Shown piece by piece: positions 173 through 48,773 of a stretch of 64,000 nucleotides of DNA. Position 1 is the first letter of the stretch. Each line of letters starts with the position of its first letter. Below the pieces are notes generated by a model, which saw only the letters and a list, made by a program, of their open reading frames with translations, searched no databases and had not been told where the DNA came from. Made by a program: the position numbers and the translations under genes. This DNA comes from Actinomycetota bacterium (GTDB lineage Bacteria > Actinomycetota > Actinomycetes > JBDIAW01): assembly GCA_039812585.1 (NCBI GenBank), contig JBDIAW010000001.1, forward strand, positions 15,547 through 79,546, given 5' to 3'.

Positions 173-481
173 TCAGTCCGCATCAGGTTCGGCCAGAAGA
201 TCGACGTAAGGCGGGTGTCGTTTGATCCACATCGCAACGAAGGGGCAGATGGGGTTGACTCGATAGCGACCATGCTTCCGGACGTCATCCAGAGCGTGAC
301 GCACCAGGGTTGAGCCCACGCCCTGGCCTTCAAACTCCGGCAGGACCACAGTGTGCGTGAAGTTGATCACCCTCTCCAGCACTTCATAGTCCAGCCGTCC
401 CACCACCTGCGAACCCTGGTGAGCTTCGTAGCGCAACTGGTAAGGATCGTGGGTCACCACAGGCTCAGTCATAGCAATCAC
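173..481 (-). CDS. Small GNAT-fold N-acetyltransferase (GNAT_acetyltran_2-like, ~100 aa)
   Basis: The 102-aa ORF has the characteristic '...GQGVGSTLVRHALDDVRKHGRYRVNPICPFV' acetyl-CoA-binding core of the mini-GNAT family. Its start overlaps the stop of the downstream ORF by 4 nt (ATGA). Confidence 0.55.
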   Translation of the reverse strand: MIAMTEPVVTHDPYQLRYEAHQGSQVVGRLDYEVLERVINFTHTVVLPEFEGQGVGSTLVRHALDDVRKHGRYRVNPICPFVAMWIKRHPPYVDLLAEPDAD

Positions 482-1548
482 CCTTCCGAGCGGGAGGTGA
501 GGTTGGTGACAGCTGCGGTGGCAGAGCTGGCCAACGCACCAGCTGCCGCAACGAACGAGGCCAAACCGCCGCCCTGACCCCCGGCCCAGTCCGGGTCATG
601 CGGGAGGGGGCCCATAGGGTCACGTTGCTGCGCCGGCGCCTGCTCGTCGGCAGGGGCTAAAGCCCGGCGTATCGATTCCTCCACCCCCAGCAGGTGATAC
701 CCCTCAGGCAGTAGTTCGGTGGTGAAGTCCATGGAGGTCGCCACCATGTCGTGGTGCAGGCTCTCGATCAACGCCTGCACGGTGGCGGAGGGAACATCGG
801 TCAGCGCCCCGGCCAACCACCCCACCACATCGGTGGAAAGCCCCGGCACCACCACCTGGGGGCGGGTCAAATTGGCCACCGTGGCATAGAGCTCCAACAG
901 CTGGGCGTAGGGCAGGCGATCCGGCCCTGCTACATCGGCGTAACTGCTGACCGCCGGTGCCTGCAGAGCACCCACCAAGGCGGCCACCATGTCCACCACA
1001 GCAACCGGCTGCACCTGACTGTTCATCCACCGGGGAATGGTGTGCACCGGCATCCGCTCAGCGATCTGGCGGATGATCTCAAAGCTGGTGGAGCCCGCCC
1101 CCAGGATCACTCCTGCACGCAAGGTGAGCGTGGGCACCCCACTGGAGCTCAACAGACGCTCCACCTCCAACCGGGAGCTCAGGTGAGGGGAGAGATCAGC
1201 CTCCCCCACCGCCGGGATCAGGCCGGAGAGGTACACCAGGCGCCCCACCCCAGCACCCTGGCAAGCTTGGGCCATGATGGAGGCGGCCTGGCGGTCTTTG
1301 GCAGCGAAATCCTGCGAGCTCAGGCTGTGGATCAGGTAGTACACCGCCTCCATGCCGGCCACGGCAGGAGCAACGGTGGGGGCATCCAGCACATCCATGC
1401 CCACCACCTGGCAGCGGGAGGCCCATCCATACCGCGTGGCCCGACTGGGGTCGGTGAAGGCGGCCCGCACCTCGTGTCCGGCGTCGAGCAGTCGGGGGAT
1501 CAGGCGCCCCCCCACATAGCCACTGGCTCCGGTGACCAGAACCCTCAT
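478..1548 (-). CDS. NAD(P)-binding SDR/NmrA-like epimerase/dehydratase family oxidoreductase
   Basis: The N-terminal Rossmann motif 'MRVLVTGASGYVGGRLIPRLL' is present in a 356-aa product with high-GC codon usage. Confidence 0.7.
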   Translation of the reverse strand: MRVLVTGASGYVGGRLIPRLLDAGHEVRAAFTDPSRATRYGWASRCQVVGMDVLDAPTVAPAVAGMEAVYYLIHSLSSQDFAAKDRQAASIMAQACQGAGVGRLVYLSGLIPAVGEADLSPHLSSRLEVERLLSSSGVPTLTLRAGVILGAGSTSFEIIRQIAERMPVHTIPRWMNSQVQPVAVVDMVAALVGALQAPAVSSYADVAGPDRLPYAQLLELYATVANLTRPQVVVPGLSTDVVGWLAGALTDVPSATVQALIESLHHDMVATSMDFTTELLPEGYHLLGVEESIRRALAPADEQAPAQQRDPMGPLPHDPDWAGGQGGGLASFVAAAGALASSATAAVTNLTSRSEG

Positions 1549-2057
1549 CAGCTCAGGTCCAGCTTGGCGTTATCCCCACCGGGGCGCGAGCCGGTCAGCA
1601 ACGACTTGGCTACTCCCAATAGCTGCGCAGGTTTACTGGGGGAATCCCAATACTGGCCGCCGGTCAAGTCCACCCGTAACAAAGCCACGGCGGGGTCTTC
1701 AGGCTCGCACTGGAACCAGGCCTGAGCAAAAGGGTTCCACAACTGCTGTTTTTTGGCCACATCGTGCACAACCTGACCGGTCCCGCTCGCTGAAACCCAG
1801 GTATCTCCATCAACGAAGACCAGATTGACCTGGGGGTATCGGCCTAGCTGATCCAGTTTCGCAGAGTCGGCATAGGTGAGGAACCACACGGTGGAGTCCT
1901 CCCGCTGCTGCACCGCCATCGGCCGGGAGTAGAGGGTGCCCTCATCATCCCTAGTGGTCATCATGCAGGTGCGTTCGCCGTGAACGAGCCGGTGGAAGAT
2001 CTCCACATCATGCTCAGGGCCTTGCGCGGGGTCAGGCTGGCTGCGGTCATCTGTCAT
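1548..2057 (-). CDS. Pyridoxamine 5'-phosphate oxidase-like FMN-binding protein (general stress protein 26 family)
   Basis: The 169-aa ORF has a PNPOx-like split-barrel signature in the region '...WFLTYADSAKLDQLGRYPQVNLVFVD...'. Confidence 0.55.
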   Translation of the reverse strand: MTDDRSQPDPAQGPEHDVEIFHRLVHGERTCMMTTRDDEGTLYSRPMAVQQREDSTVWFLTYADSAKLDQLGRYPQVNLVFVDGDTWVSASGTGQVVHDVAKKQQLWNPFAQAWFQCEPEDPAVALLRVDLTGGQYWDSPSKPAQLLGVAKSLLTGSRPGGDNAKLDLS

Positions 2058-2129
2058 GGGAGCTCCTTGGGGCGAGGGGGCGATCAGGTCAGGGCCAGCC
2101 TAAACCCGGGTGCTGACAAAACCACTGGC

Positions 2130-2771
2130 TCACAGGAGGTGGGGCAGAACATGCAGCATGATCATGCTCCAGGTGAGGTGGGTGAGGATCGGGGCCATAA
2201 CTGTTCCCCGGGTCTGACGTTGCCAGCTCGCCACAGCACCCACTGCTGCCGCAGCGAGGGTCAACATGAGGTTGCCGGTCAGCAGGGTGACCATCAGGTA
2301 CAGCGCGGTTGAGCCTGCCACCTGGTAGCGCTGTGGCAACGCGTTATACAGGGAGCCGCGAAAGAAAAGTTCCTCCGCGATACCCGAAAGCAGGGTGGTA
2401 GCGCTGAGCTGGAGCAACGAGCCGGATTGGGTGAAGCCCAACACGTCGTGCACCTGAGCGGCCCAGGAATCGATGCGCTGGGCCAGGAGTGCCCCAGCGA
2501 GAAAGGGCAACGCCAGCAGCACACCGGCAAGCATGGGGCAGGCAACCTGGCGGCTCCAGCACGTGACCGCCGCTTTGCAGCCCAGACCCGGCCAGCCCGA
2601 CCACCACGCTCCCACGGCCCAGATCAACGCCACTCCCAACGCGGCCAGGGGAAACCACGACGAGCTGTGGTCGAGGCGCAGGCTGGCGTTAAGCCCCGCC
2701 GCACCGGCTGCCACCACCAGCGCGCAGCGCGCCAGGACCTTGCGGGGTGCCTGCTGCGCAGTGGGGTGCAT
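2130..2771 (-). CDS. CPBP (CAAX protease/Abi) family intramembrane metalloprotease
   Basis: A polytopic membrane protein with the EExxxR motif ('AEELFFRGSLYNAL') and downstream His-containing helices typical of the CPBP family. Confidence 0.6.
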   Translation of the reverse strand: MHPTAQQAPRKVLARCALVVAAGAAGLNASLRLDHSSSWFPLAALGVALIWAVGAWWSGWPGLGCKAAVTCWSRQVACPMLAGVLLALPFLAGALLAQRIDSWAAQVHDVLGFTQSGSLLQLSATTLLSGIAEELFFRGSLYNALPQRYQVAGSTALYLMVTLLTGNLMLTLAAAAVGAVASWQRQTRGTVMAPILTHLTWSMIMLHVLPHLL

Positions 2772-2824
2772 CCCCCCACGCTAATGCCTTGCTGATGACC
2801 ACCGGCATAGGAGCGAAGCGAGGG

Positions 2825-3538
2825 TTAGACCTGCTCCAACTTCTCCTTCTCACGGGCCGCTAGCCGGGCGCGGGCATCGGCCAACGCGGCCAGGCTCTCG
2901 TGGATCTGCTGGAAAGGCTTACGGTGACACTGCTGATCGAACAGCTCCCCCTCGGCCTCCATCACGCGCAAGCGCGCGTAGTACAACGTGTCCTCGGCCA
3001 AGTGCGCCATGACCACCATGCCCGTCATTAACGGGTGGTTCATGGTGATGTTTTGCCCCCGCTCGCGCCCATGCTCCAACTCGACCGCCAGGGCATAGGC
3101 GAATTCGTCCACATGTCCCAGAGTGGGCTCTCCTTGGAACTGCTTGGGCGTTTGCAGAAAGTCATTAAGCACCTCTGGCGCCGGCTTGCCATGGTTCTTC
3201 GGCTTGAGATGGCCATCGCGGATCAGCGCGGCTAGCAACCCCAGCACCTTGTCAGCCTCACCAGTGGGCACCACGTTAATCCCGAAGGAATCAGCGGGAG
3301 CAATCTCGTCCAATGTCAGTTTTCCCCAGTTGCGGCGAATCCCCAGCGAAGTGCAAAACCTGCCCACTGCTTCCAGGCTCAGGAAGTCGAATTGCACGGC
3401 TTGACCTTTGGTGAACGCGGAGATGGTACGGACCACAGAGTGAGCCAGCACATCAGCATCTGCTGCCTGCTCCACTGCCCGCTGCAGGGATAGCTCCTTG
3501 CGGGTACCGGTGGGTTTTTTCGGAGTGCTGGTTGCCAT
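2825..3538 (-). CDS. Conserved hypothetical protein (237 aa, basic N-terminus, coiled-coil C-terminus)
   Basis: A long ORF with good codon bias on the same strand as its neighbours. I recognised no domain. Confidence 0.45.
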   Translation of the reverse strand: MATSTPKKPTGTRKELSLQRAVEQAADADVLAHSVVRTISAFTKGQAVQFDFLSLEAVGRFCTSLGIRRNWGKLTLDEIAPADSFGINVVPTGEADKVLGLLAALIRDGHLKPKNHGKPAPEVLNDFLQTPKQFQGEPTLGHVDEFAYALAVELEHGRERGQNITMNHPLMTGMVVMAHLAEDTLYYARLRVMEAEGELFDQQCHRKPFQQIHESLAALADARARLAAREKEKLEQV

Positions 3539-3742
3539 GACTCCCCCTTAAGGGTGCTTGTAGGTATCTCTTAGTGTGACAGTCTTATTCTGCGGGTGAT
3601 GCAAGGCTCCAGCAGTCACGAGGTCATACTCCCCTTCTCTTGACCCCTGCTTGTCCTTTTCCTTGGCGAAAGGCCTCAGCGTGGAAACTATGACCTGCCC
3701 TCACCAGAGCAACACGACGACCTTCGCCAGCTTGCCGCAACC

Positions 3743-4957
3743 GTGAAATCCTCACCCTCCAGGTGGTCACCGTGGCGTGTGGTGGCGATGTTCGGCCTCA
3801 CCAGCCTGGCCGCCGACCTGGTCTACGAGGGAGCCCGTTCGGTGTACGGGCCGCTGCTGGCCAGCGTGGGAGCCTCCGCTGTGGCGGTAGGAGCAGTGAC
3901 CGGCCTAGGTGAAGCTGCCGCCTTGGCGCTGCGCCTGCTGTTCGGCCCTTGGGCCGACCGCACTGGGCGTTACTGGGCGCTGACCATCGCCGGCTACACC
4001 CTGACCGTGGTGTCGGTGCCGCTGCTGGCGCTCACCCCTTTCCTCGGTGCGGCGGGGTTGACGGTCGCGGCCGGGCTCATCCTGCTCGAGCGCACGGGCA
4101 AGGCAATACGCTCCCCAGCTAAGTCGGCGTTGTTGGCGCAGGTGGCCCAGCAGGTGGGCCGGGGTCGCGGCTTTGGTGTGCACAAAGCGTTGGACCAGCT
4201 GGGAGCCTTCGCCGGTCCTCTGCTGGTTGCTGCCGTTGTCGCCCTCACCGGAGCGCTGTGGACCGGGCTGGCCGTGCTTGCCCTACCCGGCATGGTCGCC
4301 GTGGTGGTGCTGTTGGCCACCCGCGCCCACGCTCCGGCCCCTCCCGCCGCCGCTGGGCCGGGCCGCTCCTGGTGGGCGCAGGTGGCTGGGGCTGACCTGC
4401 CCCGGGCGTTCTTCTGGTTCGCGGCTGCGGCAGGATTGATGACCGGTGCTCTGGTGACCTTCGGGCTGATCGGCTACCACCTGGTGGTGGCCGGATTAGC
4501 CTCCCCGGCGGTGGTGCCCGTGGTGTACTCCGCCGGGATGTTGGCCGAAGCAGTGGCCGCCCTGGCCGTAGGGTGGCTCTACGACCGGATAGGCCCGCGC
4601 GTGCTTTTTGTGGTGCCCGTGTTGGTGGCCCTGGTCCCCGGCCTGGCTTTGGGCGGTGCGCTGTGGGTGGTGCTGCTGGGGGTCTTGGTGTGGGGTTTGG
4701 CGTTCGGGTTGCAAGACTCCACCATCAAAGCCTTAGTTGCCGACCTGGTGGTGGCACAGCGGCGCGCCACCGCCTACGGAGTCTTCGCCGCCATCCAGGC
4801 AGCTGCGGCCCTCACCGGAGGGATCCTCGCCGGCTGGCTCTACGCACGCTGGCTGCCCGCGCTGGTGATCACCGTCGCCATCAGCCAAGTGGTTGCCGCT
4901 GCTCTGCTGGCCAAGGCCCTGCGAGAGGGCAGCCAATCTGCGGATCGTGGGAATTGA
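3743..4957 (+). CDS. MFS transporter
   Basis: The 404-aa product has ~12 predicted TM helices and an MFS-like loop 'GRGRGFGVHKALDQLGAFAGP'. It uses a GTG start. Confidence 0.7.
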   Translation: MKSSPSRWSPWRVVAMFGLTSLAADLVYEGARSVYGPLLASVGASAVAVGAVTGLGEAAALALRLLFGPWADRTGRYWALTIAGYTLTVVSVPLLALTPFLGAAGLTVAAGLILLERTGKAIRSPAKSALLAQVAQQVGRGRGFGVHKALDQLGAFAGPLLVAAVVALTGALWTGLAVLALPGMVAVVVLLATRAHAPAPPAAAGPGRSWWAQVAGADLPRAFFWFAAAAGLMTGALVTFGLIGYHLVVAGLASPAVVPVVYSAGMLAEAVAALAVGWLYDRIGPRVLFVVPVLVALVPGLALGGALWVVLLGVLVWGLAFGLQDSTIKALVADLVVAQRRATAYGVFAAIQAAAALTGGILAGWLYARWLPALVITVAISQVVAAALLAKALREGSQSADRGN

Positions 4958-5018
4958 GTTTCCACATTCCCTGCCTTTTTGGGAGTTGCAGGATCGATCA
5001 TCTTACCTATGGTTAAAA

Positions 5019-6146
5019 TTAAAGCGAAAAGTAGGGAGATTCCATATAGTCATCCAAGCATTTCATCCATAAAACACTTGCTTTACGTCCCCACATTGCC
5101 TCGACTCTACTCGTGACTTTTTGGTCTGGATTAACTATAATCATTTCTTTTCTAAACTTCGAGAATTCGATTACTTCATCCATAAAAACTTTAAAATGCT
5201 GGTCACCACTAGGAAATGAGTACCCTATAAATACAATGCGATCGGATTGCTCAAGTGCAACTTTTGCCTTCCCCCAAATCGTTGCAAATGGCTGGTCATT
5301 AAATTTTTTAATCTGAGATGGTGCGATAAGTAAGGGGAGATATCTCGAGCATCTTTTGTAGGTAGTGGTTAAACTCCCGCCAACTAGTCTTCGATACCCG
5401 GTGTCATCGATAAGCAAGCCACGTGAACCATCTTCCCATTCAACATTAAACCAAGTAATACAGCCATGCAACTTTAATACCTCTACTGTAGTTTCGTCAT
5501 TGCAAAAATATGAGTAATAATCTTTGCGGCTAAAGTACGGAAGGGGTCCAGAGCATTCAATCAGAGCAATGTCATCGAACTCAAATCCATAACAACACTG
5601 CCTTTTCCAGCGATAAATTGCAGGAGGTAGTGTCAGTCTGAACTTGTCAGGATGGTGCTTGTATAAATCAATATAGGGTTCTTCGTAGCATTTTATCCGA
5701 GTAGACAGCTGGGACTCTATGAGCCTTTCAAGTACGGTATCGTAATTGAAAGTAATCACTGGTTCATTCGAACGAATGATAGACTGGGCTAAACGACTCG
5801 CATTACTATCTTCGGTGATGTTTATTCTCCCAACCAATTGTCCTAAAAGATGGACTGCTTGGAGAAAGATCTGATATTCTTCTGGATTATAACCGAAGCT
5901 TGTGGGATCAGATGGCATATCTAGCCCAGTAAAAAATTTTTCTAGGTTTAAAGTTTTCCCTTTAAGTAGATCTCTATAACTAATGTTCCATTTATTGCTA
6001 ATATACTGATCGAGTCCAGATCCTTCAAATTCTGGGTTTTCTTTGACCACATAATTGAAAAAATTGTCCGAAACGAATGCTTCGATGTACTGCTCATGAG
6101 GGTGTTTACGAAATGCCTTATTAAAACCAGCGCCCAGTACGTACAT
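5019..6146 (-). CDS. SIR2_2-family (ThsA/DSR-like sirtuin) NADase-domain protein, stand-alone, ~375 aa
   Basis: Three SIR2_2 motifs occur in order: 'YVLGAGFNKAF' (GAG nucleotide-binding loop), 'VITFNYDTVLE' (TNYD motif) and 'KLHGCITWF' (catalytic HG), plus 'RIVFIGYSFPSGDQHF' (the VGFSF motif of ThsA). The gene is ~37% GC in a ~67% GC genome. The ATG at 6146 lies 2 nt after the dnaB stop. The longer tracked ORF (to 6470) overlaps dnaB and is not believed. Confidence 0.6.
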   Translation of the reverse strand: MYVLGAGFNKAFRKHPHEQYIEAFVSDNFFNYVVKENPEFEGSGLDQYISNKWNISYRDLLKGKTLNLEKFFTGLDMPSDPTSFGYNPEEYQIFLQAVHLLGQLVGRINITEDSNASRLAQSIIRSNEPVITFNYDTVLERLIESQLSTRIKCYEEPYIDLYKHHPDKFRLTLPPAIYRWKRQCCYGFEFDDIALIECSGPLPYFSRKDYYSYFCNDETTVEVLKLHGCITWFNVEWEDGSRGLLIDDTGYRRLVGGSLTTTYKRCSRYLPLLIAPSQIKKFNDQPFATIWGKAKVALEQSDRIVFIGYSFPSGDQHFKVFMDEVIEFSKFRKEMIIVNPDQKVTSRVEAMWGRKASVLWMKCLDDYMESPYFSL

Positions 6147-6147
6147 C

Positions 6148-7560
6148 TTACATCCCTGCGGCCATATCGACGAAGCGGGAGTAGTGGCCTTGGAAAGCAA
6201 CGGTGATGGTGTCGGTGGGGCCGTTGCGTTGCTTGGCAACGATGAAGTCCGCCTCCCCGGCCCGGGGTGATTCTCGGTCGTAAACATCTTCGCGGTGCAG
6301 CAGAATGACCACGTCAGAGTCCTGCTCGATACTGCCCGATTCGCGCAGGTCAGAAAGCATAGGTTTCTTATCGGCGCGCTGTTCGCTGGAGCGGTTGAGT
6401 TGGGAGAGCGCCACGACGGGGACGTCAAGCTCCTTAGCCAGCAGCTTGAGCGAACGGGAGAACTCGGCAACCTCTTGTTGGCGTGATTCCACCCGCTTTC
6501 CGCTGCTCATCAACTGCAGGTAGTCGATAATCACCAGCTTGAGGTCGTGGCGCTGCTTGAGCCTGCGGCATTTGGCGCGAATCTCCATCAGCGACATGTT
6601 GGGGGAGTCGTCGATGAACAGCGGCGCGTTGGATACCTCCCCCATGCGCTTGGCCAGCTTGTTCCAGTCTTCATCGGTCATCGTGCCCGCACGCATGTGT
6701 TGCAGCGGCACTTTGGCCTCAGCCGACAGCAAACGCATAGTGATCTCATTGCGGCCCATTTCCAAGCTGAACACACAGGTAGGCAAGTTGTTTTTCACCG
6801 CAGCGCATCGGGCAATATCCAAGGCCAGGGTGGATTTACCCATCGATGGGCGGGCGGCTATAACGACCATCTGGCCCGGATGCAAACCGTTGGTCAGCTT
6901 GTCTAAGTCGGCAAAACCGGTAGGCACTCCGGTCATCGCCCCACCCCGGGAGCCGATGGCCTCCAGCTCGTCGAGCGCACCTTCCATGATGGCTGACAGG
7001 GGCTGGTAGTCCTCGCTGTTGCGTTGCTCAGTGACCGCATACATCACCGACTGGGCGGCATCCACCAGGTCGGTAGCCTCCGCCCCATCGGCGGAGTACC
7101 CCATCTGCACGATGCGGGTGCCAGCGTCCACCAGTCGGCGCAGCAGAGCCCTCTCACTGACAATGCGGGCGTAGTACTCCGCGTTGGCCGCTGTGGGCAC
7201 CATGGAGATCAACGTGTGCAGATAAGCTGCGCCGCCGATGCGGTTGAGTTCTCCACGCTTGGTCAGCTCGGCACTGACGGTGATGGGGTCCGCCGGTTGG
7301 CCTCGAGCGTAAAGATCAGTGATGATCTCGAAGATCAGCTCGTGGGCTGGGATGTAAAAGTCGCTGGAGTGCGTGACCTGCACGACGTCGGCGATGGCGT
7401 CCTTACTCATCAGCATGCCACCCAGCGCGGACTGCTCCGCGCCCACATCTTGGGGCGGAGTGCGGTCATAGGAGGGGCCCTGCTGACTGGAGGTGCCACT
7501 GTCGTTGGAGTGTTGCGGCCGTTGCGGCAAAGAAGTGACCGACATGGGCTGCCTTTCCAC
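6148..7560 (-). CDS. dnaB: Replicative DNA helicase DnaB
   Basis: A full-length 470-aa product with Walker A 'GARPSMGKST', the DnaB N-terminal domain and conserved rplI-dnaB synteny. No intein is present. Confidence 0.95.
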   Translation of the reverse strand: MERQPMSVTSLPQRPQHSNDSGTSSQQGPSYDRTPPQDVGAEQSALGGMLMSKDAIADVVQVTHSSDFYIPAHELIFEIITDLYARGQPADPITVSAELTKRGELNRIGGAAYLHTLISMVPTAANAEYYARIVSERALLRRLVDAGTRIVQMGYSADGAEATDLVDAAQSVMYAVTEQRNSEDYQPLSAIMEGALDELEAIGSRGGAMTGVPTGFADLDKLTNGLHPGQMVVIAARPSMGKSTLALDIARCAAVKNNLPTCVFSLEMGRNEITMRLLSAEAKVPLQHMRAGTMTDEDWNKLAKRMGEVSNAPLFIDDSPNMSLMEIRAKCRRLKQRHDLKLVIIDYLQLMSSGKRVESRQQEVAEFSRSLKLLAKELDVPVVALSQLNRSSEQRADKKPMLSDLRESGSIEQDSDVVILLHREDVYDRESPRAGEADFIVAKQRNGPTDTITVAFQGHYSRFVDMAAGM

Positions 7561-7924
7561 AGGAGGTGTTGTACTGGCAGCACCACCGCAGACATGGTGC
7601 CCCTACTGCTGAGTTTTAACACCTGCCACTGACAATGGTGCTGCCCGGTGCATGGGTGAGGGCGTCACCGTAAAGGGTGGCAGCCTCTCCGACAATTCAG
7701 CCTGTGGACAAGCTGGGGGTAACGGTGGATAACCGGTGGAAAAACTACGGCGTGTTGTGCACAGCCTGGGGAAAACCCTGGGGACAGCAACGGTAAGTTT
7801 GCCAATTTTCTTTAAGCAGCAAGAGGTATTTATACACAGCCTGATGAGAAAAAATGGCTTCACCCCTGCGTGCCAATGTCAGCTATTAAGGCTTAAATAC
7901 ACCTGACACTGCCCGGTGAGGAGC

Positions 7925-7970
7925 CCTTAAAAGCCACTGGCCTGCAGAGCAGGAGCTCCACAGGCCAGTG
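7925..7970 (-). terminator. Putative intrinsic terminator/attenuator hairpin downstream of rplI
   Basis: A 10-bp inverted repeat (cactggcctg ... caggccagtg) with a 16-nt loop is followed on the minus strand by a U-rich 'cuuuuaag'. It lies between the rplI stop and the dnaB promoter region. Confidence 0.4.
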
Positions 7971-7987
7971 ATCCAACACTTACGCAG

Positions 7988-8443
7988 TTAGACCTTTTTT
8001 GCCGCACTCACCTCGATCACCAGCGAGGTGGTCACCTCGGGGTGCAGGCGCACACTCACCTCGTGGCGCCCGAGCGTTTTAATGTGATCTGGCAGTATGA
8101 CTTGGCGTTTGTCGATGGCGGCCCCCAAGGTGTCATTGATGGCCTGAGCCACATCGGCTCCAGTAACCGAGCCAAACAGCCGCCCTTCACCACCAGCGCG
8201 CATGGTGATAGTCACCGTGCGGCCCTGCAGTTGGCTGGCCATCTCAGTAGCCTGCTCGCGGTTACGAATCTGGCGAGCCTTACGGGAACGGTGCAGATCC
8301 GCGACCTGCTTTTCCGCACCACGGGTCCAGCGCATCGCCAACCCGCGCGGCACGAGATAGTTACGAGCGTAACCGTCTTTGACGGTCACCACTTCGCCCG
8401 AGTCGCCCAGGCGCTCCACATCGTGGGTAAGAATTAGTTTCAT
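7988..8443 (-). CDS. rplI: 50S ribosomal protein L9
   Basis: 'MKLILTHDVERLGDSGEVVTVKDGYARNYL' is the canonical L9 N-terminus. Confidence 0.95.
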   Translation of the reverse strand: MKLILTHDVERLGDSGEVVTVKDGYARNYLVPRGLAMRWTRGAEKQVADLHRSRKARQIRNREQATEMASQLQGRTVTITMRAGGEGRLFGSVTGADVAQAINDTLGAAIDKRQVILPDHIKTLGRHEVSVRLHPEVTTSLVIEVSAAKKV

Positions 8444-9574: not shown

Positions 9575-9885
9575 GAGGATGCGTCCTCCTTCGGACTGAT
9601 GGTCGCAGGTTGATCCAGCGACAGGAGGGACAACGAAGGTGTCGCCACCGTTACCGATACCGACACTAGAGCCCAATCTAGTCGCCACCAGCGCCTCCAG
9701 CGAAATGGTGGATAACTTTCCCCACCCACGTGCTGCTGGGGATAACCGTGAAAGGAAGGGGGAAAGTGTTGTTCCGCAACGGATAATTCGTTCTGCTCTG
9801 CCTCACTCGACCTCCGGGTGGGCAGGAAAACCGTTGCCCTGTGGATACCGCCAACGCCAATGACCAACGGTTAGTGTGTCCATGT

Positions 9886-39949: not shown

Positions 39950-40282
39950 ATGGCAACCCTGACCATTACTGACTCCACTTTTTCCACAGAAGTACTCACG
40001 AGTTCTACCTCAGTCTTGGTGGATTTTTGGGCGCAGTGGTGCGGGCCCTGTCGCCAGATTGCTCCGGCATTAGAGGAGATTTCTACCGAAATGGCCGATT
40101 CGCTGGTGGTGGCCAAACTCAATATCGACGAAAACCCTCAGACAGCCGCCCAATTCGGGATTACTTCCATACCTACTATGATCCTTTTCCGTCAGGGTAG
40201 CCCTGTGCATACCATCGTTGGGGCTCAACCCAAACATGCAATCGTGCAGCAGCTTCAAACTCACCTGCTCAGTGCACATTGA
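39950..40282 (+). CDS. trxA: Thioredoxin
   Basis: 'VDFWAQWCGPCRQIAP' contains the WCGPC active site in a 110-aa product. Confidence 0.9.
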   Translation: MATLTITDSTFSTEVLTSSTSVLVDFWAQWCGPCRQIAPALEEISTEMADSLVVAKLNIDENPQTAAQFGITSIPTMILFRQGSPVHTIVGAQPKHAIVQQLQTHLLSAH

Positions 40283-40489
40283 GACGTCTGTAGTCAGTGT
40301 GGGTGGCATGATGAGCCCTTAACTACTGCTTAGGCCGCAAAAGTTCCTCCTGCCGTTAGACACAATGAGACAATTCCTTCTGGCTGATGCTCCTGAATGC
40401 CAGATTCCCGTGTGCTTAGGTAGGTGTTGTGGAATGACTCTGACTAATGCCGCAAAAACTTTGTTGTTGGACACGAAGAAAGGCTCTCG

Positions 40490-41608
40490 GTGAATTCCAC
40501 CTCCTACATGCTGGGCGACCATGGCCAAGCGGTGACAGAAATCCGTGACCGCCTCGTGGTGTTGGGCCTGTTAACGCCTCACCCCGAATCAGGCGATACT
40601 TTTGACGAGACTGTTGACACTGCAGTGCGTATTTTTCAACAGCAACGCAGTCTTACCGTGGATGGGGTTGTAGGGCCTGTCACCTTCCGCACACTTGAAG
40701 AAGCACGTTGGCGCTTGGGTGACCGGATCCTGCACAACCAAATCCACAACCCCTTGGCTGGCGACGATGTGGCGCAGTTGCAGCAACGTCTTTCTTCTAT
40801 GGGCTTCGACAGTGGACGGGTAGACGGCATCTTTGGGCCCCACACTGAGGCCGCTTTAAGAGACTTCCAAAAAAATGTCGGGATGCCCGTAGACGGCACC
40901 TGTGGTCCCACCACTTTCAAGGCGTTACAGCGTCTCTCCCGAACTGTTGTGGGAGGAAGCCCCTTAGCACTGCGAGCAGAAGAACAGTTCCATGCCTCTG
41001 GCTTAACCCCTTTAGGGAAAGTGGTCGTCCTAGACCCTGGGCATGGTGCGGATGATGCCGGCATTCTCATGGGGACGCTGGCAGAGGCCGATATCGTTTC
41101 TGATTTAGCGGCACGTATTGAGGGTCGATTGGTAGCCACAGGGATGCTGGTCTTCTTAACGAGAGGTAAGGACGGGAATCATCTAACCGACCAGCAACGT
41201 GCCCACTTTGCCAACTCTGCTGGTGCCCAATTATGTGTGTCACTCCACGTCGATCAAGATGACAACACCGTAGCTAATGGAGTGGCTACGTATTACTACG
41301 GAAACGAGAGATACTCCACCGTTTCCCCATTAGGGCAACGATTTGCAGAGCTGGTTCAACGCCACATCGTGACAGCGACCGACCTGTCCAACTGTCGAAG
41401 CCATGCCAAGACCTGGGACTTGTTGCGACTCACCACTATGCCGACGGTCCTCATTGAGGTTGGCTATCTCACCAATTCAGGTGATGCTGAGCGTTTAGCT
41501 AATCCAGCCTTTCGCGACACGGTCGCTGAAGCAATCAGCAACGCGATCGTGGCGATGTTTAACCCCTCCACTCCATCCTTCGCCGACGACGCTGTGCCAG
41601 TTGGATAA
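40490..41608 (+). CDS. cwlM: N-acetylmuramoyl-L-alanine amidase (Amidase_3) with two N-terminal peptidoglycan-binding (PG_binding_1) domains; CwlM-like
   Basis: Two repeats ('AVTEIRDRLVVLGLL...', 'DVAQLQQRLSSMGFDSGRVDGIFGPHTEAALRDFQ') precede the amidase_3 'VVVLDPGHGADDAG'. Position after trxA is conserved. Confidence 0.85.
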   Translation: MNSTSYMLGDHGQAVTEIRDRLVVLGLLTPHPESGDTFDETVDTAVRIFQQQRSLTVDGVVGPVTFRTLEEARWRLGDRILHNQIHNPLAGDDVAQLQQRLSSMGFDSGRVDGIFGPHTEAALRDFQKNVGMPVDGTCGPTTFKALQRLSRTVVGGSPLALRAEEQFHASGLTPLGKVVVLDPGHGADDAGILMGTLAEADIVSDLAARIEGRLVATGMLVFLTRGKDGNHLTDQQRAHFANSAGAQLCVSLHVDQDDNTVANGVATYYYGNERYSTVSPLGQRFAELVQRHIVTATDLSNCRSHAKTWDLLRLTTMPTVLIEVGYLTNSGDAERLANPAFRDTVAEAISNAIVAMFNPSTPSFADDAVPVG

Positions 41609-41620
41609 GGAATGCCTGCC

Positions 41621-41634
41621 GTTTCACGTGAAAC
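41621..41634. promoter_or_regulatory. parS site 1 (GTTTCACGTGAAAC), overlapping the stop codon and last 3 codons of ddl
   Basis: An exact 14-bp actinobacterial parS consensus, extended to the 18-bp palindrome ccGTTTCACGTGAAACgg. The ddl C-terminal residues RFT* are encoded by it. Confidence 0.8.
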
Positions 41635-42595
41635 GGGCCCCATTAGTGCGCTGGTAAGCGTGTTCGACCAGCGCGGAGCAGAAGTCAGTTAGGGTTCGGC
41701 CCGTAGCATGAACTGCTTGCGGAAGCAGGCTGTTAATGGTCATCCCCGGAGAAACATTGACCTCCAGAAACCAGTGTTGCCCTTGAGGGTCAACGATGAA
41801 GTCGGCGCGAGAATAATCACGTAAACCCAATGCTTGATGAATGCTTTCCGCTGCCTCGGTCAAAGCAGACAGAACGTCAGGGCCAACACCGGCTGGGATG
41901 ACAAATTGACTCTCCCCCACCGTGTATCTGGCCGTGTAGTCATAGCCTTGCTGGCCAGTTTTGATTTCTACGGCCGGTAAGCTACCCCAACCAGGAACTG
42001 CGTCGATAACTGTTAATGCCACCTCTGTCCCCACGATGAACTTCTCCAAGAGCACTGCAGAGTCATAGGCAAAAGCATGGACCAGAGCACTAGTGAGTTC
42101 ATCGGCCTGCTGAACCACACTCAACCCCAGCGAAGAACCCCCCCGGTTTGGCTTTACTACTAGCGGGAATCCTAAGGACTCCACCATGGGCGTTAAGAGG
42201 TGAGCTGCTCCTAACAATTTGATGGTATCTGTTGTGATAATAAAAGCGGGGGGGGTGATCAATCCTTGAGCCTGAGCAATACTCTTGGCAGCGAACTTAT
42301 CAAAAGCTAGATGGGCGGCACCCGCAGTGCTACCCACATAGGCCAATCCCAGTGCTTCGCATAAGGTTTGGATGGCTCCATCTTCCCCCAAGCTCCCATG
42401 CAACATTGAAAAGGCAAGATTGGTTTCGAGTTCTCGGAGTTTGGGTACCAAGGAAGTATCGATATCACAGACACTCACTGTGTAACCAGCGCTTCCTAAG
42501 GCCTCGGCAACTTGGAGCCCAGATTGTAGGGAAATCTCCCGCTCGTGAGACAAACCACCAGCGAGTACTGCAATTTTTAGGTTGGAGGTGGTCAT
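41624..42595 (-). CDS. ddl: D-alanine--D-alanine ligase
   Basis: The N-terminus 'KIAVLAGGLSHEREISLQSG' and an ATP-grasp C-terminal region 'ADFIVDPQGQHWFLEVNVSPGMT' are present. Confidence 0.85.
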   Translation of the reverse strand: MTTSNLKIAVLAGGLSHEREISLQSGLQVAEALGSAGYTVSVCDIDTSLVPKLRELETNLAFSMLHGSLGEDGAIQTLCEALGLAYVGSTAGAAHLAFDKFAAKSIAQAQGLITPPAFIITTDTIKLLGAAHLLTPMVESLGFPLVVKPNRGGSSLGLSVVQQADELTSALVHAFAYDSAVLLEKFIVGTEVALTVIDAVPGWGSLPAVEIKTGQQGYDYTARYTVGESQFVIPAGVGPDVLSALTEAAESIHQALGLRDYSRADFIVDPQGQHWFLEVNVSPGMTINSLLPQAVHATGRTLTDFCSALVEHAYQRTNGARFT

Positions 42596-43914
42596 GGCAT
42601 GCTCACATTAGGGTTGTCGGACTGGCGCCATTGAGGTTTGCTTTGGGTAGGTCCAAGGATATGTCGAAGCTCTAATTCCTCATTGACCACACCAGCTAAC
42701 CTTCGCACTCCTTCGCGTAATTGATCCACTGGAGGGAAGCAGTAAGAGAGACGCAAACTGCTTTCACCCAACACTCGCCCTGCGCCGGAGTAGAAAGCGC
42801 TGCCCGGAACATAAGCAACCCTTGCATTCAATGCGCGAGGCAGCATTAATGCTGAATCGATCCCCATGGGAAGGTTAACCCACACATAAAACCCGCCCTG
42901 AGGAACTGTCCAGTGCACTCCTTCAGGCATGGCTGCCGTCAGGGTTTCAATCACCGCATCACGCCGCTCCCGATAAATATTGCGATACGAGGTGATCTGT
43001 TGCTGCCAATCAAACTCCTGTAAATAGGTGCAGACAACTGTCTGGGCCAAAGCCGAAGGACACAACATAGTCGCTTCGGCTGCCAAAATCAGCTTGTCCC
43101 TAATCACCCGAGGTGCCACGACCCATCCGACCCGAGTGCCAGGAGCAAAGGTTTTAGAAAATGATCCCAGATAGATGACGTCTTCGTTGATGGAGCGCAG
43201 AGCTGGCAAAGTTTGGTGATCAAATCCGAGCAAGCCATAAGGGTTGTCCTCAACTAATGGCACTTTAGACTGAGCGCAAAGGCTCACAATCCGCTGGCGA
43301 CGCTCCAATGTTTGAGTCACTCCGGCTGGATTGTGAAACGTGGGAATGGTGTAAACAAACTTGGGAGCTTTTCCTTGGGCTTGACATCCTGCAATAGCTG
43401 ACGACAGCGCCTCGGGATGCAGTCCTTGCTCATCCATGTCGACATGAACAACTTCTGCTTCGTATGATCTAAATGCTTGAAGGGCACCCACATACGATGG
43501 GGCTTCAGCGAGGATGACATCGCCCGGATTAATGAACACCCTCGTCAATAGATCCAAGGCCTGCTGGGACCCAGTTGTGACCACTACGTCATCTGGGTGT
43601 GCTGCTATACCCTCTACAGCCATCACGGAGACGATTTCTTCACGTAGCTGAGGGTCGCCTTGGGCCGATCCGTACTGCAAGGCATAGGTACCTCGGGTTT
43701 TAATCAGCTCGGCAATCTTGTTCCCGATCTCAGCGAGAGGGAGAGCAGAGACGTAGGGCATGCCGCCCGCTAAGGAAACAATTTCCGGCCGTGAAGCGAC
43801 GGCAAATAGGGCGCGGATCTCCGAGGCGGTCATACTTGCGGTTCGCTCAGCCAGTAGTGGGATGGTTTCACGTGAAACCATCCCACTACTGGGGTTCTCC
43901 CCCTCAACACTCAT
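42592..43914 (-). CDS. PLP-dependent aminotransferase, class I/II fold (2-aminoadipate/MocR-C-terminal-like, no HTH)
   Basis: 'TASEIRALFAV' near the N-terminus, the fold-type I core 'VVVTTGSQQALDL' and a PLP Lys region 'YLGSFSKTFAPGTRVGW' are present. The stop overlaps the ddl start (ATGA). The start is uncertain (43914 or 43881), and the 5' end contains a parS site. Confidence 0.7.
   Translation of the reverse strand: MSVEGENPSSGMVSRETIPLLAERTASMTASEIRALFAVASRPEIVSLAGGMPYVSALPLAEIGNKIAELIKTRGTYALQYGSAQGDPQLREEIVSVMAVEGIAAHPDDVVVTTGSQQALDLLTRVFINPGDVILAEAPSYVGALQAFRSYEAEVVHVDMDEQGLHPEALSSAIAGCQAQGKAPKFVYTIPTFHNPAGVTQTLERRQRIVSLCAQSKVPLVEDNPYGLLGFDHQTLPALRSINEDVIYLGSFSKTFAPGTRVGWVVAPRVIRDKLILAAEATMLCPSALAQTVVCTYLQEFDWQQQITSYRNIYRERRDAVIETLTAAMPEGVHWTVPQGGFYVWVNLPMGIDSALMLPRALNARVAYVPGSAFYSGAGRVLGESSLRLSYCFPPVDQLREGVRRLAGVVNEELELRHILGPTQSKPQWRQSDNPNVSMP
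43865..43878. promoter_or_regulatory. parS site 2 (GTTTCACGTGAAAC) inside the 5' end of the aminotransferase CDS
   Basis: An exact consensus within the 20-bp palindrome atGGTTTCACGTGAAACCat. It encodes 'MVSRET' in the ORF. Confidence 0.8.
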
Positions 43915-44045
43915 CGAGGCTCACCTTCATCTTCGCTTCGCAGCGCATCCCACCGAACGGTCGCCAGCCTACTCATCGACGAGCCGACACCCTCTTAGCA
44001 GTGCTTTTAGTACGGACGCTGCCTTTTTATCAAACAGGAGGGGGC

Positions 44046-44059
44046 GTTTCACGTGAAAC
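44046..44059. promoter_or_regulatory. parS site 3 (GTTTCACGTGAAAC), intergenic between parB and the aminotransferase
   Basis: An exact consensus within the 24-bp palindrome ggggcGTTTCACGTGAAACgcccc. Confidence 0.85.
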
Positions 44060-44086
44060 GCCCCCTCCTGTTTGATAAAAAGTGTC

Positions 44087-45145
44087 CTAAAACACCGCTG
44101 GTGATCTTGTTTCTTCAGAAGTGCCTTGGCGAAGATCGACAACCTCGGGCGAGGATCGCTCCATACGACGTCCAGGCAGCGAAGCCACTAATTGGGGGTC
44201 TAAGATACCTAAGATTCGTTCGAGATCATCTAGGGTGGCAAACTCAATGGCTACTTTTCCTTTGTGTCGACCTAAATCAACTTTCACACGGGTCTCTAGG
44301 TGGGTGGAGAGTCGCTCAGCAATTTCCACCAAGCGGGGCGATACTGGACGATGAGTCCTGTTCGATGAAGGGTGCTCGACTTCCTCCTCATGAGAAAGGG
44401 TAGCTAACTCCTCCACGGCTCGAACGGATAAACCCTCCGCTACAATGCGATCAGCAACCTCTTCTTGGCGCTTTTCGCCGTCAAAGGCCAACAACGCCCG
44501 GGCATGTCCTGCCGTGAGGACACCAGCAGCAACTTTTCGCTGGACCGAGGGAGGGAGCTTGAGTAATCGAAGTGTATTACTGATTTGCGGGCGGGATCGG
44601 CCAATACGCTGAGCGAGTTCCTCGAGGGAACAGGAAAAATCATTAAGCATTTGATCGTAAGCTGCGGCCTCCTCTAATGGGTTCAGGGGACTGCGATGCA
44701 AGTTCTCAAGCAATGCGTCGCGTAGCATGCTGTGATCTTCAGTATCCCTCACAATTGCGGGCAAATGGGTAAAGCCGGCTTGTTGAGCAGCCCGCCAACG
44801 CCTCTCTCCCATCACCAGCTCATATTGGCCATCCTCGACCCGGCGTACCACTACCGGCTGGAGCAGACCTACTTCTTTCAATGAGTGCACCAACTCTGCT
44901 AAGTCATCTTCATTGAAAACCTGCCTAGGTTGCCTAGCATTGGGCCGCACACTTTTAATGGGCAATTCTGCGAAATGCCCACCCACGGGCTCATCCAGGA
45001 CAGGTTCTAACCGGGGAGGTTTTTCCGGAATCAACATGTCGACGGGGCTCGACTCGTTAGTCCGATTGGTGGTTTCATGAGTGGGTGGCACCACCGGTAT
45101 GAGGGCGCCCAGGCCTCGGCCTAACCCTCTGCGTCGTTCGGTCAC
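44087..45145 (-). CDS. parB: Chromosome partitioning protein ParB
   Basis: The ParB box 'GERRWRAA' is present, with an HTH region and the N-terminus '...RGLGRGLGALIP'. Confidence 0.9.
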   Translation of the reverse strand: MTERRRGLGRGLGALIPVVPPTHETTNRTNESSPVDMLIPEKPPRLEPVLDEPVGGHFAELPIKSVRPNARQPRQVFNEDDLAELVHSLKEVGLLQPVVVRRVEDGQYELVMGERRWRAAQQAGFTHLPAIVRDTEDHSMLRDALLENLHRSPLNPLEEAAAYDQMLNDFSCSLEELAQRIGRSRPQISNTLRLLKLPPSVQRKVAAGVLTAGHARALLAFDGEKRQEEVADRIVAEGLSVRAVEELATLSHEEEVEHPSSNRTHRPVSPRLVEIAERLSTHLETRVKVDLGRHKGKVAIEFATLDDLERILGILDPQLVASLPGRRMERSSPEVVDLRQGTSEETRSPAVF

Positions 45146-46443
45146 TAGTTTTCCTCTCGGGTTGTCGGAGAAAGTGCATGGCTAAATTCGTTGGCAGCTT
45201 GCATGTAACACCATGTGCCTGTTGATGTGGGGTCGTAGGTCAAGACTGTTTGCCCGTGACTGGGTGCTTCGGAGATACGTACCGAACGAGGAATAACTGT
45301 TTTAAGCACTGAATCATTGAAGTGTCCTCGCACCTCATCGGTCACCTGGGCGGCTAGACGGGTGCGGCTATCAAACATTGTCAACAAAATGGCGGAAATC
45401 TCCAATTGTGGATTGAGATGCTTCTGGATCATGTCGATATTTTGCAGCAATTGCCCCAAACCTTCTAGCGCGTAATATTCGCACTGAATAGGTATGAATA
45501 CTTCAGTAGCTGCCACGAGTGCATTGATGGTGAGCAGGCCCAGGCTGGGTGGGCAGTCAATAAACACATAGTCAGGTAAGGTTTCCCCCAACTTTCGCTG
45601 CTCGGCGAGATAGTCATCCAAAGCCTTGCGAAGTCGTAGCTCCCGAGCTACCACGGGAACCAATTCGATCTCAGCCCCTGCCAAGTCAATAGTCGCGGGT
45701 ACCACACGCATCGAGGGGAAGAATGGAACTGGATGCACCACCTCACTCAGGGGCTTCCCACCAATGAGTACCTCATAAATGCCCTCTGTACCCGGCGCAT
45801 GGTCAACCCCCAATGCGGTGGAGGCATTTCCTTGCGGGTCAAGATCGATAACGAGCACCTGGGCTCCCTGAGCGGCTAAGCCCGCTGCAACATTGACCGT
45901 ACTGGTGGTTTTCCCTACTCCACCTTTTTGATTGGCAACAGAAACCCTTCGCACGTGAGAGTGGCGAGCCAGAGGTGGCATGTGGGGTAAAAGTTCGATC
46001 GGGCTCGTGGATTCTTCCGGAGCAGCCACTCCTGGATACTCCACGGGATCAGATTCTTGGGGTTGAGGTGAAAGTTCTACAGCGATGGGTTGCTCAAGGA
46101 TCGATGATGGCTCGGTGATTGCCTCCGCCTCGTCTCTGAGTAATTCGCCCTCCCTCATCAGGGATGCTGGCTCGGGCAAATCGGCTGGAGTCGCTGAGTA
46201 GGAGTCATCACGTAAATCGAGCACCAAGTTGGTTTGGCTCGCAGTAGGCCAACCCAGCCCGGATACCTGCTGAATCAATGGCCAAGACGATCCTGCGTGA
46301 TCATGTGTGGCCCAACCGACCGAGCAAAAGCTAGGTGTCATGTACTGGCCAGACGAGATGACGGATAAAGAAGATTTTGTTTCTGTGCTGACGTGGTTCA
46401 TCGCTACCTTCCTGATAGTCCTACAGTCCGCACCTTGTGTCAC
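45145..46443 (-). CDS. parA: Chromosome partitioning ATPase ParA (Soj) with a long N-terminal extension
   Basis: The deviant Walker A 'KGGVGKTTSTVN' is at about residue 175 of 432. The core after that is a typical ParA. The start codon is uncertain. Confidence 0.85.
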   Translation of the reverse strand: MTQGADCRTIRKVAMNHVSTETKSSLSVISSGQYMTPSFCSVGWATHDHAGSSWPLIQQVSGLGWPTASQTNLVLDLRDDSYSATPADLPEPASLMREGELLRDEAEAITEPSSILEQPIAVELSPQPQESDPVEYPGVAAPEESTSPIELLPHMPPLARHSHVRRVSVANQKGGVGKTTSTVNVAAGLAAQGAQVLVIDLDPQGNASTALGVDHAPGTEGIYEVLIGGKPLSEVVHPVPFFPSMRVVPATIDLAGAEIELVPVVARELRLRKALDDYLAEQRKLGETLPDYVFIDCPPSLGLLTINALVAATEVFIPIQCEYYALEGLGQLLQNIDMIQKHLNPQLEISAILLTMFDSRTRLAAQVTDEVRGHFNDSVLKTVIPRSVRISEAPSHGQTVLTYDPTSTGTWCYMQAANEFSHALSPTTREEN

Positions 46444-46452
46444 GGTCGTCTC

Positions 46453-47073: not shown

Positions 47074-47107
47074 CGATGGTTCGGAGCTACCGAAGTAGGG
47101 ATAACGC

Positions 47108-47121: not shown

Positions 47122-47124
47122 GCT

Positions 47125-48767: not shown

Positions 48768-48773
48768 GTTTTC

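Follow-up and report, generated by a model that had tools for sequence, protein, structure and literature searches.

A single AT-rich gene, most likely gained horizontally by a high-GC actinobacterium, lies directly behind the replicative helicase gene dnaB in the 64,000-nt stretch of DNA analyzed here (the window). This islet gene (5019..6146, minus strand; 375 codons, ATG start, TAA stop) encodes a standalone SIR2_2 (SIRim-type) protein, by its sequence a member of an already-known enzyme superfamily, and probably owes its expression to dnaB, with which it would travel as a passenger. We give roughly even chances to the interpretation that it represents a horizontally gained, autoinhibited NADase defence effector read through from dnaB.

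The GC content (200-nt windows) changed from 0.64-0.70 at positions 4501-5000 to 0.35-0.44 at positions 5001-6100 and rose to 0.57-0.60 from position 6101. For individual genes, GC was 0.394 for the islet gene as compared to 0.607 for dnaB and 0.695 for the convergent MFS transporter gene (3788..4957, plus strand), a gene of native composition (GC 0.70) that marks the left boundary. GC3 of the islet gene was 0.37 as compared to 0.66-0.81 in neighboring genes, and the FYMINK fraction was 0.32 for its protein as compared to 0.11-0.28 for the neighbors. Each of its three codon positions has a foreign-looking composition, as has the amino-acid content; these measures and windowed GC agree with the foreign composition proposed in an earlier, sequence-only reading of this DNA. 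That reading also placed abrupt GC changes at both edges; an AT-rich islet is present and its right edge coincides with the dnaB stop codon, but the step on the MFS side is gradual, extending across the 61-nt spacer of intermediate GC between the convergent MFS and islet-gene stops (4958..5018; 0.57, 0.50, 0.40 and 0.33 in 40-nt windows). This spacer contains no significant hairpin or terminator (RNA fold z-score -0.05). The islet gene has the lowest GC3 among 45 ORFs, yet its distance below the mean is no more than 2.7 sd. Moreover, core genes near oriC (dnaA, yidC, parAB) have GC contents of 0.44-0.54, so that local genomic GC is not uniform; as native dnaA and yidC are at 0.44-0.48, low GC alone is weaker evidence of foreign origin than it appears.

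A compositional step this sharp could also be produced by an assembly chimera or by a contaminant joined to the actinobacterial contig, and Logan contigs do break nearby (two inside dnaB at position 6595, one at position 4790). Both junctions nevertheless recur across independent assemblies, which makes this explanation almost certainly wrong: the dnaB-SIR2 junction was found in three Logan runs (SRR19427084, SRR10090775, SRR10090778), the SIR2-MFS junction in the same three and in SRR10090776, and Logan contigs L081-L083 match the window at 100% identity. A fifth Logan contig (L189) ends in a putative convergent gene fragment, and the islet gene is also present in a 101-kb NCBI record.

The dnaB gene (6148..7545, minus strand) was recognized by its translation, by Pfam DnaB/DnaB_C matches in an identical Logan contig and by 87% identity to a relative (P0010). 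At the junction (TAAgATG, 6144..6150, minus strand; GCAGGGATGTAAGATG), the dnaB stop codon (6150..6148) is followed by a single spacer base (6147) and the ATG of the islet gene (6146..6144). An SD-like AGGGA (6153..6157, minus strand), 6 nt upstream of this ATG, is embedded in the final dnaB codons and resembles native ribosome-binding sites of the locus (AAAGGA for ssb, GAAAGG for dnaB). The abutment and the location of AGGGA had been described correctly before. Since dnaB and the islet gene occupy different reading frames, a DnaB-SIR2 readthrough fusion protein was rejected. A longer ORF (5019..6470; 483 aa, TTG start) was likewise rejected as the gene, as homologues begin no more than approx. 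10 residues before the GAGFN motif.

No promoter-like or terminator-like site was found between dnaB and the islet gene, which abut so closely that a promoter would not fit between them. The promoter scan covered sigma-70-type consensus sites, and an internal promoter of another type within the 3' end of dnaB might drive the gene. The order rpsF-ssb-rpsR-rplI-dnaB was observed as described, and transcription of the islet gene had been attributed to the promoter of this operon. The gaps from rpsF to rplI measure 29-39 nt, but the rplI-dnaB spacer (7546..7987, minus strand) measures 442 nt and carries four DnaA-box-like sites (7703-7838) within a block conserved in the relative with 87% identity, so that any read-through more likely starts from a dnaB-specific promoter, and the operon-wide attribution was set aside. 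The 442-nt spacer likely serves as promoter and leader of dnaB, and a transcript that extends into the islet gene would then likely originate there; no known RNA elements were found at positions 4900-8050. Lsr2 typically silences AT-rich DNA in actinobacteria, and the islet gene, which is AT-rich and has a codon usage poorly suited to the host, may be poorly expressed.

Comparison with relatives did not yield an ancestral state of the locus. Close relatives by DnaB (P0010, 87% identity; P0011, 84%) carry other genes after dnaB, with no MFS gene. The islet gene was lacking 3' of dnaB in both of the nearest relatives whose flanks were available, next to dnaB in L084-L088, and at another 80 actinobacterial dnaB loci. 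Searches for proteins identical to the MFS and SIR2 proteins gave islet-bearing contigs only, with no empty MFS-dnaB site, and the same search with DnaB gave no matches. The empty site can not be reconstructed, because the whole stretch of approx. 6 kb from dnaB to a GNAT acetyltransferase gene differs from the closest relative. MFS never adjoins dnaB in the relatives compared, and the view that the islet was inserted between these two genes gained no support.

A near-direct repeat is present at the islet edges, with a left copy, ACATTCCCTGC, at 4964..4974 (plus strand) and a right copy, ACATCCCTGC, at 6150..6159 (plus strand). Both copies had been noted in the sequence-only reading, with the left one placed a base too far to the right, and taken as a possible target-site duplication or attachment-site remnant. 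A site-specific mobile cassette that duplicated a target of approx. 10 bp, ACAT(T)CCCTGC, on insertion would account for two observations: a check of the motif's rarity found these two flanking matches and no other on either strand of the 64-kb window, and the left copy, which reads GCAGGGAATGT on the minus strand, resembles GCAGGGATG located directly after the dnaB stop in relative L084. However, a match of equal quality (10 nt or longer, one edit allowed, in a pair of 40-nt windows of the same geometry) occurred in 5.3% of 3000 random placements; the repeat is real, but statistically unremarkable and at chance level. The right copy, moreover, consists of conserved dnaB coding sequence, i.e., the final codons Ala-Gly-Met and the first base of the stop codon, and a junction there would leave the pre-insertion dnaB without a stop codon (the DnaB C-terminus is A-G-M-stop here and AAGV in relatives). 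Among the features expected of a mobile element, we found at the islet no integrase, transposase or other recombinase, no terminal inverted repeats and no direct repeats beyond chance, and an integron-like attC was rejected as its core site was unmatched. Other members of the protein family share no flanking motif and occur in heterogeneous contexts. Overall, a cassette of this kind is very unlikely, and the interpretation of the repeat as a duplication or attachment remnant was not supported.

Identification of the product as SIR2-like was upheld by a Pfam match to PF13289 (SIR2_2) above the cutoff (33.2 bits vs. 24.5; E 6.8e-8) and by the SIR2 fold of the structural model; 13 PADLOC SIR2 models also matched. 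SIR2_2 was the sole Pfam match at E ≤ 1, i.e., the classical sirtuin family PF02146 was absent, and the SIR2 domain fills the whole 375-aa protein; Pfam shows no other domain in it, and no sensor domain is obvious. The motifs GAGFN (residues 5-9), TFNYD (132-136), KLHG (225-228) and IGYSFPSGD (307-315) are present; N134 and D136 do not vary among 69 family sequences, in which H227 is conserved to at least 90%. These three residues align to N163, D165 and H212 of PsSIR2, which are catalytic (PMC11472057); in 8w9l and 8j4u, the segments aligned to TFNYD and KLHG read TTNYD and KLHGS. The protein keeps the glycine loop of the NAD pocket and all family-invariant catalytic and structural residues, but its cysteines are not conserved across the family, so that it carries no family-wide Cys4 zinc module. 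A segment of approx. 33 residues found in other family members is missing, which might impair the protein. An AF2 model built from the 69 family sequences (pLDDT 86.5, pTM 0.88; a version with 5 sequences gave an unusable pLDDT of 48.8) predicts a SIR2 Rossmann fold with a helical small domain. Foldseek ranked the SIR2 subunit of SIR2-HerA best (E 2.5e-8), followed by DSR2, ThsA and sirtuins; a viral structure library gave no match under E 1e-3.

Within the SIR2 family, SIR2_2/SIRim proteins make up the half associated with immunity (bioRxiv 10.1101/2024.09.18.613514), and the islet protein differs from each of the systems compared. Its identity to the SIR2 proteins of SIR2-HerA (Nezha; 8w9l PsSIR2, 8wld, 8j4u, 8sub) is 13-17%; there, the NADase is switched on by a HerA hexamer, whereas the islet protein has no dedicated partner, as no HerA gene was found adjacent to it, among 36 ORFs of the 64-kb window or among 101 neighbors of 34 family members. 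DSR1, DSR2 and ThsA share the SIR2_2-type NADase domain and gave significant structural matches. DSR1 and DSR2 act as single genes, but are approx. 1000 aa long with large C-terminal sensor domains, in contrast to the bare 375-aa SIR2 described here, and DSR2 chains align over the SIR2 domain only (TM normalized to target, 0.15-0.17). Thoeris ThsA depends on the TIR partner ThsB and has a SLOG or Macro domain; neither domain occurs on the islet protein and no TIR gene occurs in the window. Similarly, the window has no pAgo/APAZ gene as in SIR2-pAgo (SPARSA), and the protein no STAND NTPase fusion as in Avs5 (SIR2-STAND). FAM118B and FAM118A form a vertebrate-specific SIR2_2 clade in which activity requires the A/B paralogue pair.

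The nearest homologue among 5.8 billion proteins shows 27-28% identity. At E ≤ 1e-30, 199 family representatives were found (about 200 clusters at 50% identity); these are proteins of approx. 390 aa, sparse and patchy in distribution, which occur alone and sometimes in integrase- or defence-rich surroundings. No recurrent partner gene emerged, with no neighbor family in more than 2 of 34 loci (101 neighbors; Pfam, PADLOC and all-vs-all BLASTP). Neighbors do include methyltransferases, TIR, Dsr1, DRT and integrases, but this defence link is anecdotal, as it concerns a handful of the 34 loci and is not a statistical enrichment. The analysis delineates an uncharacterised subfamily of minimal, partnerless SIR2_2 proteins, which in predicted structure is closest to HerA-dependent SIR2.

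In the favored interpretation, the islet gene would have no promoter of its own and would depend on transcripts that run on from dnaB and probably start at the promoter bearing the DnaA boxes. Termination-reinitiation coupling via AGGGA in the last dnaB codons would then yield a low, replication-linked level of SIR2 protein. PsSIR2 alone is autoinhibited through its small domain (PMC11472057), and the helical small domain might hold the islet protein inactive as in PsSIR2 and ThsA, until a phage-derived cue triggered oligomerisation, NAD+ hydrolysis and aborted infection. Small SIR2-only proteins can also be controlled by filament formation (FAM118B, PMC12700824). A more specific proposal, in which the SIR2 protein would use host DnaB as a HerA-like partner and act as a guard that senses phage hijack or inhibition of DnaB and then destroys NAD+, seems highly improbable. 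It stems from the observation that the closest structural relatives are activated by HerA, a RecA-fold hexamer like DnaB, and in this scheme translational coupling to dnaB would favor co-assembly with DnaB.

Two interpretations without a defence role have to be weighed against the read-through NADase effector. The gene could be an inert, recently gained fragment, silenced or barely translated and kept by drift with no function in this host, as its unameliorated composition (GC3 0.37) and foreign codon usage, the absence of its own promoter and of a partner gene, the missing 33-residue family segment and the single lineage known to carry it would suggest. We consider this unlikely, as the 375-codon ORF is intact in AT-rich DNA with all family-invariant catalytic and structural residues kept, the exact 1-nt junction with its SD-like site saves both the dnaB stop and a usable start and so looks selected, and decay would be the expected fate of an NADase gene lying idle on an essential transcript. 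The other possibility is an NAD-dependent modifier, i.e., a deacylase or ADP-ribosyltransferase acting on a host target, possibly replication-linked and functionally analogous to DarT, whose operon with dnaB in M. tuberculosis ties DNA ADP-ribosylation to replication. In that species, transcription of darT-darG is linked to that of dnaB (PMC12170906), and darT-darG is likewise an NAD+-using defence-type module located right after dnaB in an actinobacterium. This position is the sole likeness: DarT is a PARP-like ADP-ribosyltransferase as opposed to a SIR2 fold, and DarTG is a two-gene toxin-antitoxin system with a macrodomain antitoxin, conserved in the M. tuberculosis complex, whereas the islet holds a single strain-specific gene of foreign composition. 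Neither DarT nor DarG is present at the islet, where Pfam and PADLOC give SIR2 only and no second gene lies between dnaB and MFS. A modifier role is distinctly unlikely, since Pfam gives SIR2_2 and no classical sirtuin family, no antitoxin or macrodomain partner is present, a strain-specific gene of foreign composition fits an integrated regulatory role poorly, and other family members show no linkage to replication genes save one divergent MCM approx. 1 kb away.

If the proposed arrangement is true, this would be the second independent NAD+-consuming defence-type enzyme on a replicative-helicase transcript in an actinobacterium, after darT-darG, and a case in which a promoterless foreign gene gains expression by joining onto an essential gene at its 3' end, perhaps also evading silencing of AT-rich DNA. 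Current knowledge would not be overturned; the locus adds a variant and a testable candidate. The place is unusual for an accessory gene, as suggested before, but darT-darG provides a precedent. The dnaB 3' flank was rejected as a general hot spot, as the 80 actinobacterial dnaB loci showed no AT-rich dip (minimum 500-nt GC within approx. 0.06 of the locus mean). These loci contained no SIR2 or MFS homologue, and matches to defence models were limited to two mad2 (methyltransferase-like) hits. The first gene after dnaB encoded a beta-lactamase-family/DUF7586 protein in 36 of 79 loci, mostly from Streptomyces.

The AT-rich islet between dnaB and the MFS gene coincides with a single open reading frame (6146..5019, minus strand; 375 codons, ATG start, TAA stop), with GC contents in 200-nt windows of 0.64-0.70 at 4501-5000, 0.35-0.44 at 5001-6100 and 0.57-0.60 beyond 6101. 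While the islet described in the sequence-only reading is therefore real, GC does not fall "exactly" at the MFS stop, as the shift on that side is gradual and spread across the 61-nt spacer. The islet gene had a GC content of 0.39 and a GC3 of 0.37, with GC3 values of 0.76 for dnaB, 0.81 for the MFS gene and 0.66-0.77 for rplI, rpsR, ssb and rpsF. It ranked lowest among the 45 ORFs of the window, yet only 2.7 standard deviations below the mean, because the chromosome is unevenly composed, which weakens arguments from low GC to foreign origin in this genome. For example, a 12-kb origin-proximal core block (40000-51600; amidase, ddl, aminotransferase, parB, parA, gidB, jag-like, yidC and dnaA) showed GC3 values of 0.44-0.53, and the adjoining dnaN, gyrB and gyrA, as well as dnaB 44 kb away, values of 0.72-0.76; this block could have been replaced by recombination with a lower-GC relative, or could reflect a regional bias. 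The islet gene deviates in amino acid content (FYMINK 0.32 versus 0.11-0.28) as well as at each of the three codon positions, a composition that points to a long stay in an AT-rich donor and not to a local mutational quirk. Two promoter-like sites lie within the gene on the plus strand (5113-5141 and 5494-5521), antisense and facing dnaB (GTGACT-17-TATAAT scores 10 of 12); AT-rich foreign DNA typically shows such spurious promoters in GC-rich hosts.

The encoded protein scored above the threshold of the Pfam model SIR2_2 (PF13289) and matched 13 PADLOC "SIR2" models, with E values down to 3.9e-11; no NCBIfam model matched it. Together with the predicted structure, these matches confirm that the gene is SIR2-like. 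Among 5.8 billion proteins, the sole close match was an identical sequence and the next best was 27% identical; an exhaustive profile search, which ruled out an orphan gene, yielded 199 family representatives at E <= 1e-30 and 3710 at E <= 1e-10, each standing for a 50%-identity cluster, with single-domain proteins of 380-430 aa as the best matches. In an alignment of 69 sequences, N134, D136, E140, K225, G228, W232, G308, S310 and D315 were invariant, and G5, A6, G7, N9 and H227 were at least 90% conserved. The AlphaFold model made with this alignment was confident (pLDDT 86.5, pTM 0.88), and after the top ones its structural matches were classical sirtuins, KomC, ThsA, Avs5 and FAM118B. In the profile alignment, TFNYD and KLHG fell on TTNYD and KLHGS of 8w9l and 8j4u; as the catalytic residues of PsSIR2 are N163, D165 and H212 (PMC11472057), alignment to PsSIR2-type motifs indicates that the window protein retains N134, D136 and H227 as its catalytic triad, together with the N-terminal glycine loop. 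Cysteines are not conserved, and the protein thus lacks a sirtuin-type zinc module. A segment of approx. 33 residues (W-W...PPD...W; alignment columns 326-358) found in the four nearest homologues is missing from the window protein at about 255-270. Overall, the islet gene belongs to the SIR2_2 superfamily, every testable defining feature being present.

The gene belongs to no known system. Its immediate neighbours are dnaB and the convergent MFS gene, and PADLOC found no HerA, TIR, pAgo or DarT in 36 window ORFs, the matches being generic ones to ATPases and methylases. Membership in SIR2-HerA (no HerA), Thoeris (no TIR), SPARSA (no pAgo), DarTG (no DarT) and the classical sirtuins (no zinc module) was rejected on these grounds, and the window protein also failed the tests for DSR1/2 and Avs5. 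In the literature, the SIR2_2/SIRim clade forms that half of the SIR2 family which is associated with immunity (bioRxiv 10.1101/2024.09.18.613514). Metagenomic, viral and Logan contigs supplied 34 full-length family members with 101 neighbours; no neighbour family occurred in more than two of these loci (Pfam, PADLOC), and an all-versus-all BLASTP of the neighbours did not show any hidden recurrent partner. Neighbours included DNA methylases, TIR proteins, Dsr1, DRT reverse transcriptases, PDC-S02 and phage integrases; one archaeal member sits in an element carrying two integrases, a few members lie on IMG/VR contigs, and many have lower GC than their flanks. The family has the character of a standalone accessory gene that is mobile, with a defence-island flavour that is anecdotal at 34 loci; the islet gene, which rides on dnaB, represents a minimal and partnerless SIRim subfamily.

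On the minus strand, a single base separates the dnaB stop (6150..6148) from the islet ATG (GCAGGGATG-TAA-G-ATG), a spacer that leaves no room for a promoter. The SD-like AGGGA reported by the sequence-only reading is present 6 nt before the ATG and is similar to the native ribosome-binding sites AAAGGA and GAAAGG. A consensus scan, which captures actinobacterial promoters poorly, found no promoter-like site in the 3' end of dnaB and no terminator between dnaB and the islet gene. That reading had the gene driven from the ribosomal-protein operon promoter, which is doubtful since rplI and dnaB are separated by 442 nt (7546-7987), as compared to 29-39 nt between rpsF, ssb, rpsR and rplI. The 442-nt spacer matched no Rfam family and carries four DnaA-box-like sites at 7703-7838 (TTGTCCACA, TTATCCACC, TTGTGCACA and TTATACACA), in a block 86% identical over 85 nt to the relative with 87% identical DnaB, above flanking coding DNA. 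Judging from these motifs, dnaB is probably under its own DnaA-responsive promoter, where any read-through into the islet gene would probably begin. Upstream of rpsF (9707-9848), three more DnaA-box-like sites form another small cluster. Further DnaA-box clusters (49874-50085 and 51628-51750) flank dnaA (50097-51584), which is followed by dnaN (51910-53133); by gene order and motif content, the window holds the chromosomal origin region, which places the islet approx. 44 kb from oriC, its transcription being co-directional with replication.

The nearest relatives with flanking DNA keep rpsF-ssb-rpsR-rplI-dnaB and carry other genes after dnaB, i.e., a luciferase-like gene and then a GNAT acetyltransferase in P0010 (DnaB 87% identical) and a convergent 482-aa gene in P0011 (84%). 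The acetyltransferase (173-481; 55% identical to the GNAT of L084, the contig of the 87% relative) is the sole post-dnaB gene common to the window and its relatives, so the whole dnaB-to-GNAT stretch is lineage-specific: it spans approx. 6 kb in the window (173-6147; SIR2, MFS, DUF5661, Rce1-like, PNPOx-like and epimerase), of which only the SIR2 gene is AT-rich, and approx. 1.3 kb in the closest relative (L084 9209-10801; luciferase-like gene). In this lineage, synteny breaks at the 3' flank of dnaB. Neither an AT-rich dip nor a homologue of the islet gene was found in 80 further actinobacterial dnaB loci, and look-ups of the locus proteins found no allele without the islet. As 79 other actinobacterial dnaB flanks held no defence genes, the 3' side is not a general hot spot. 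The location is unusual, as the sequence-only reading had it, but not without precedent, as darT-darG is transcriptionally linked to dnaB in M. tuberculosis (PMC12170906).

That the islet was created by misassembly is extremely improbable, and neither junction is an assembly artefact: three independent SRA assemblies contain the dnaB-SIR2 junction and four the SIR2-MFS junction (100% identity to the window in the three that were aligned), and the gene is also present in an NCBI record. In a fifth run (SRR10090770) the contig ends in a putative convergent gene fragment. Two independent assemblies end at the same base within dnaB (6595), one of them also within the MFS gene (4790), breaks that could be due to heterogeneous strains or to poor coverage near the islet. 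Insertion as a site-specific cassette with target duplication is quite unlikely. The near-direct repeat on which the sequence-only reading based a possible target-site duplication or attachment-site remnant exists, its left copy shifted by one base (4964-4974, ACATTCCCTGC; right copy 6150-6159, ACATCCCTGC), and the copies are the sole two matches to the pattern in the window. However, in this geometry 5.3% of random placements of two 40-nt windows yield a one-edit match of 10 nt or more, the islet interior holds many repeats of comparable quality, and no terminal inverted repeats, recombinase or significant hairpin in the 3' spacer were found. Moreover, the right copy consists of the terminal codons of dnaB (Ala-Gly-Met-stop; AAGV or AQV in relatives), and an insertion junction there would therefore leave the pre-insertion dnaB without a stop codon. 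In the 87% relative, GCAGGGATG directly follows the dnaB stop and resembles the left copy (GCAGGGAATG on the minus strand); the left copy may be what is left of the native sequence after dnaB, and illegitimate recombination may have been guided by microhomology, both being suggestive only. At L084 9197-9222, the 12 nt after the dnaB stop (GCAGGGATGAGA) resemble a degenerate version of the final 12 nt of dnaB (GCCGGTGTGTGA) and match the motif 3' of the islet in the window.

In the islet, an intact foreign gene for a catalytically equipped SIR2_2 enzyme is fused to the 3' end of dnaB; its anatomy is neat and testable, its class is familiar, and its function is one that we infer. It would be transcribed by read-through from dnaB, as its anatomy suggests, and translated by termination-reinitiation coupling; the protein would be kept off by its own helical small domain, as has been shown for PsSIR2 on its own and for ThsA, and activated through oligomerisation, as in the filaments of FAM118B, Avs5 and ThsA, and NAD+ depletion would then serve as an abortive-infection response. 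This five-step scheme, taken whole, has about an even chance of being correct. An inert or silenced passenger is unlikely, and a non-defence NAD-dependent modifier, which would be analogous to DarT, is rather improbable. It is very improbable that the enzyme uses DnaB as a partner, guarding it against phage hijacking; the evidence for such pairing comprises position and structural kinship to HerA-dependent SIR2, and nothing further, the DnaB helicase and HerA both being RecA-fold hexamers. A replicative helicase lies near just one of the 34 family loci, an archaeal one (L122 2995-7422), as a divergent MCM gene approx. 1 kb away.
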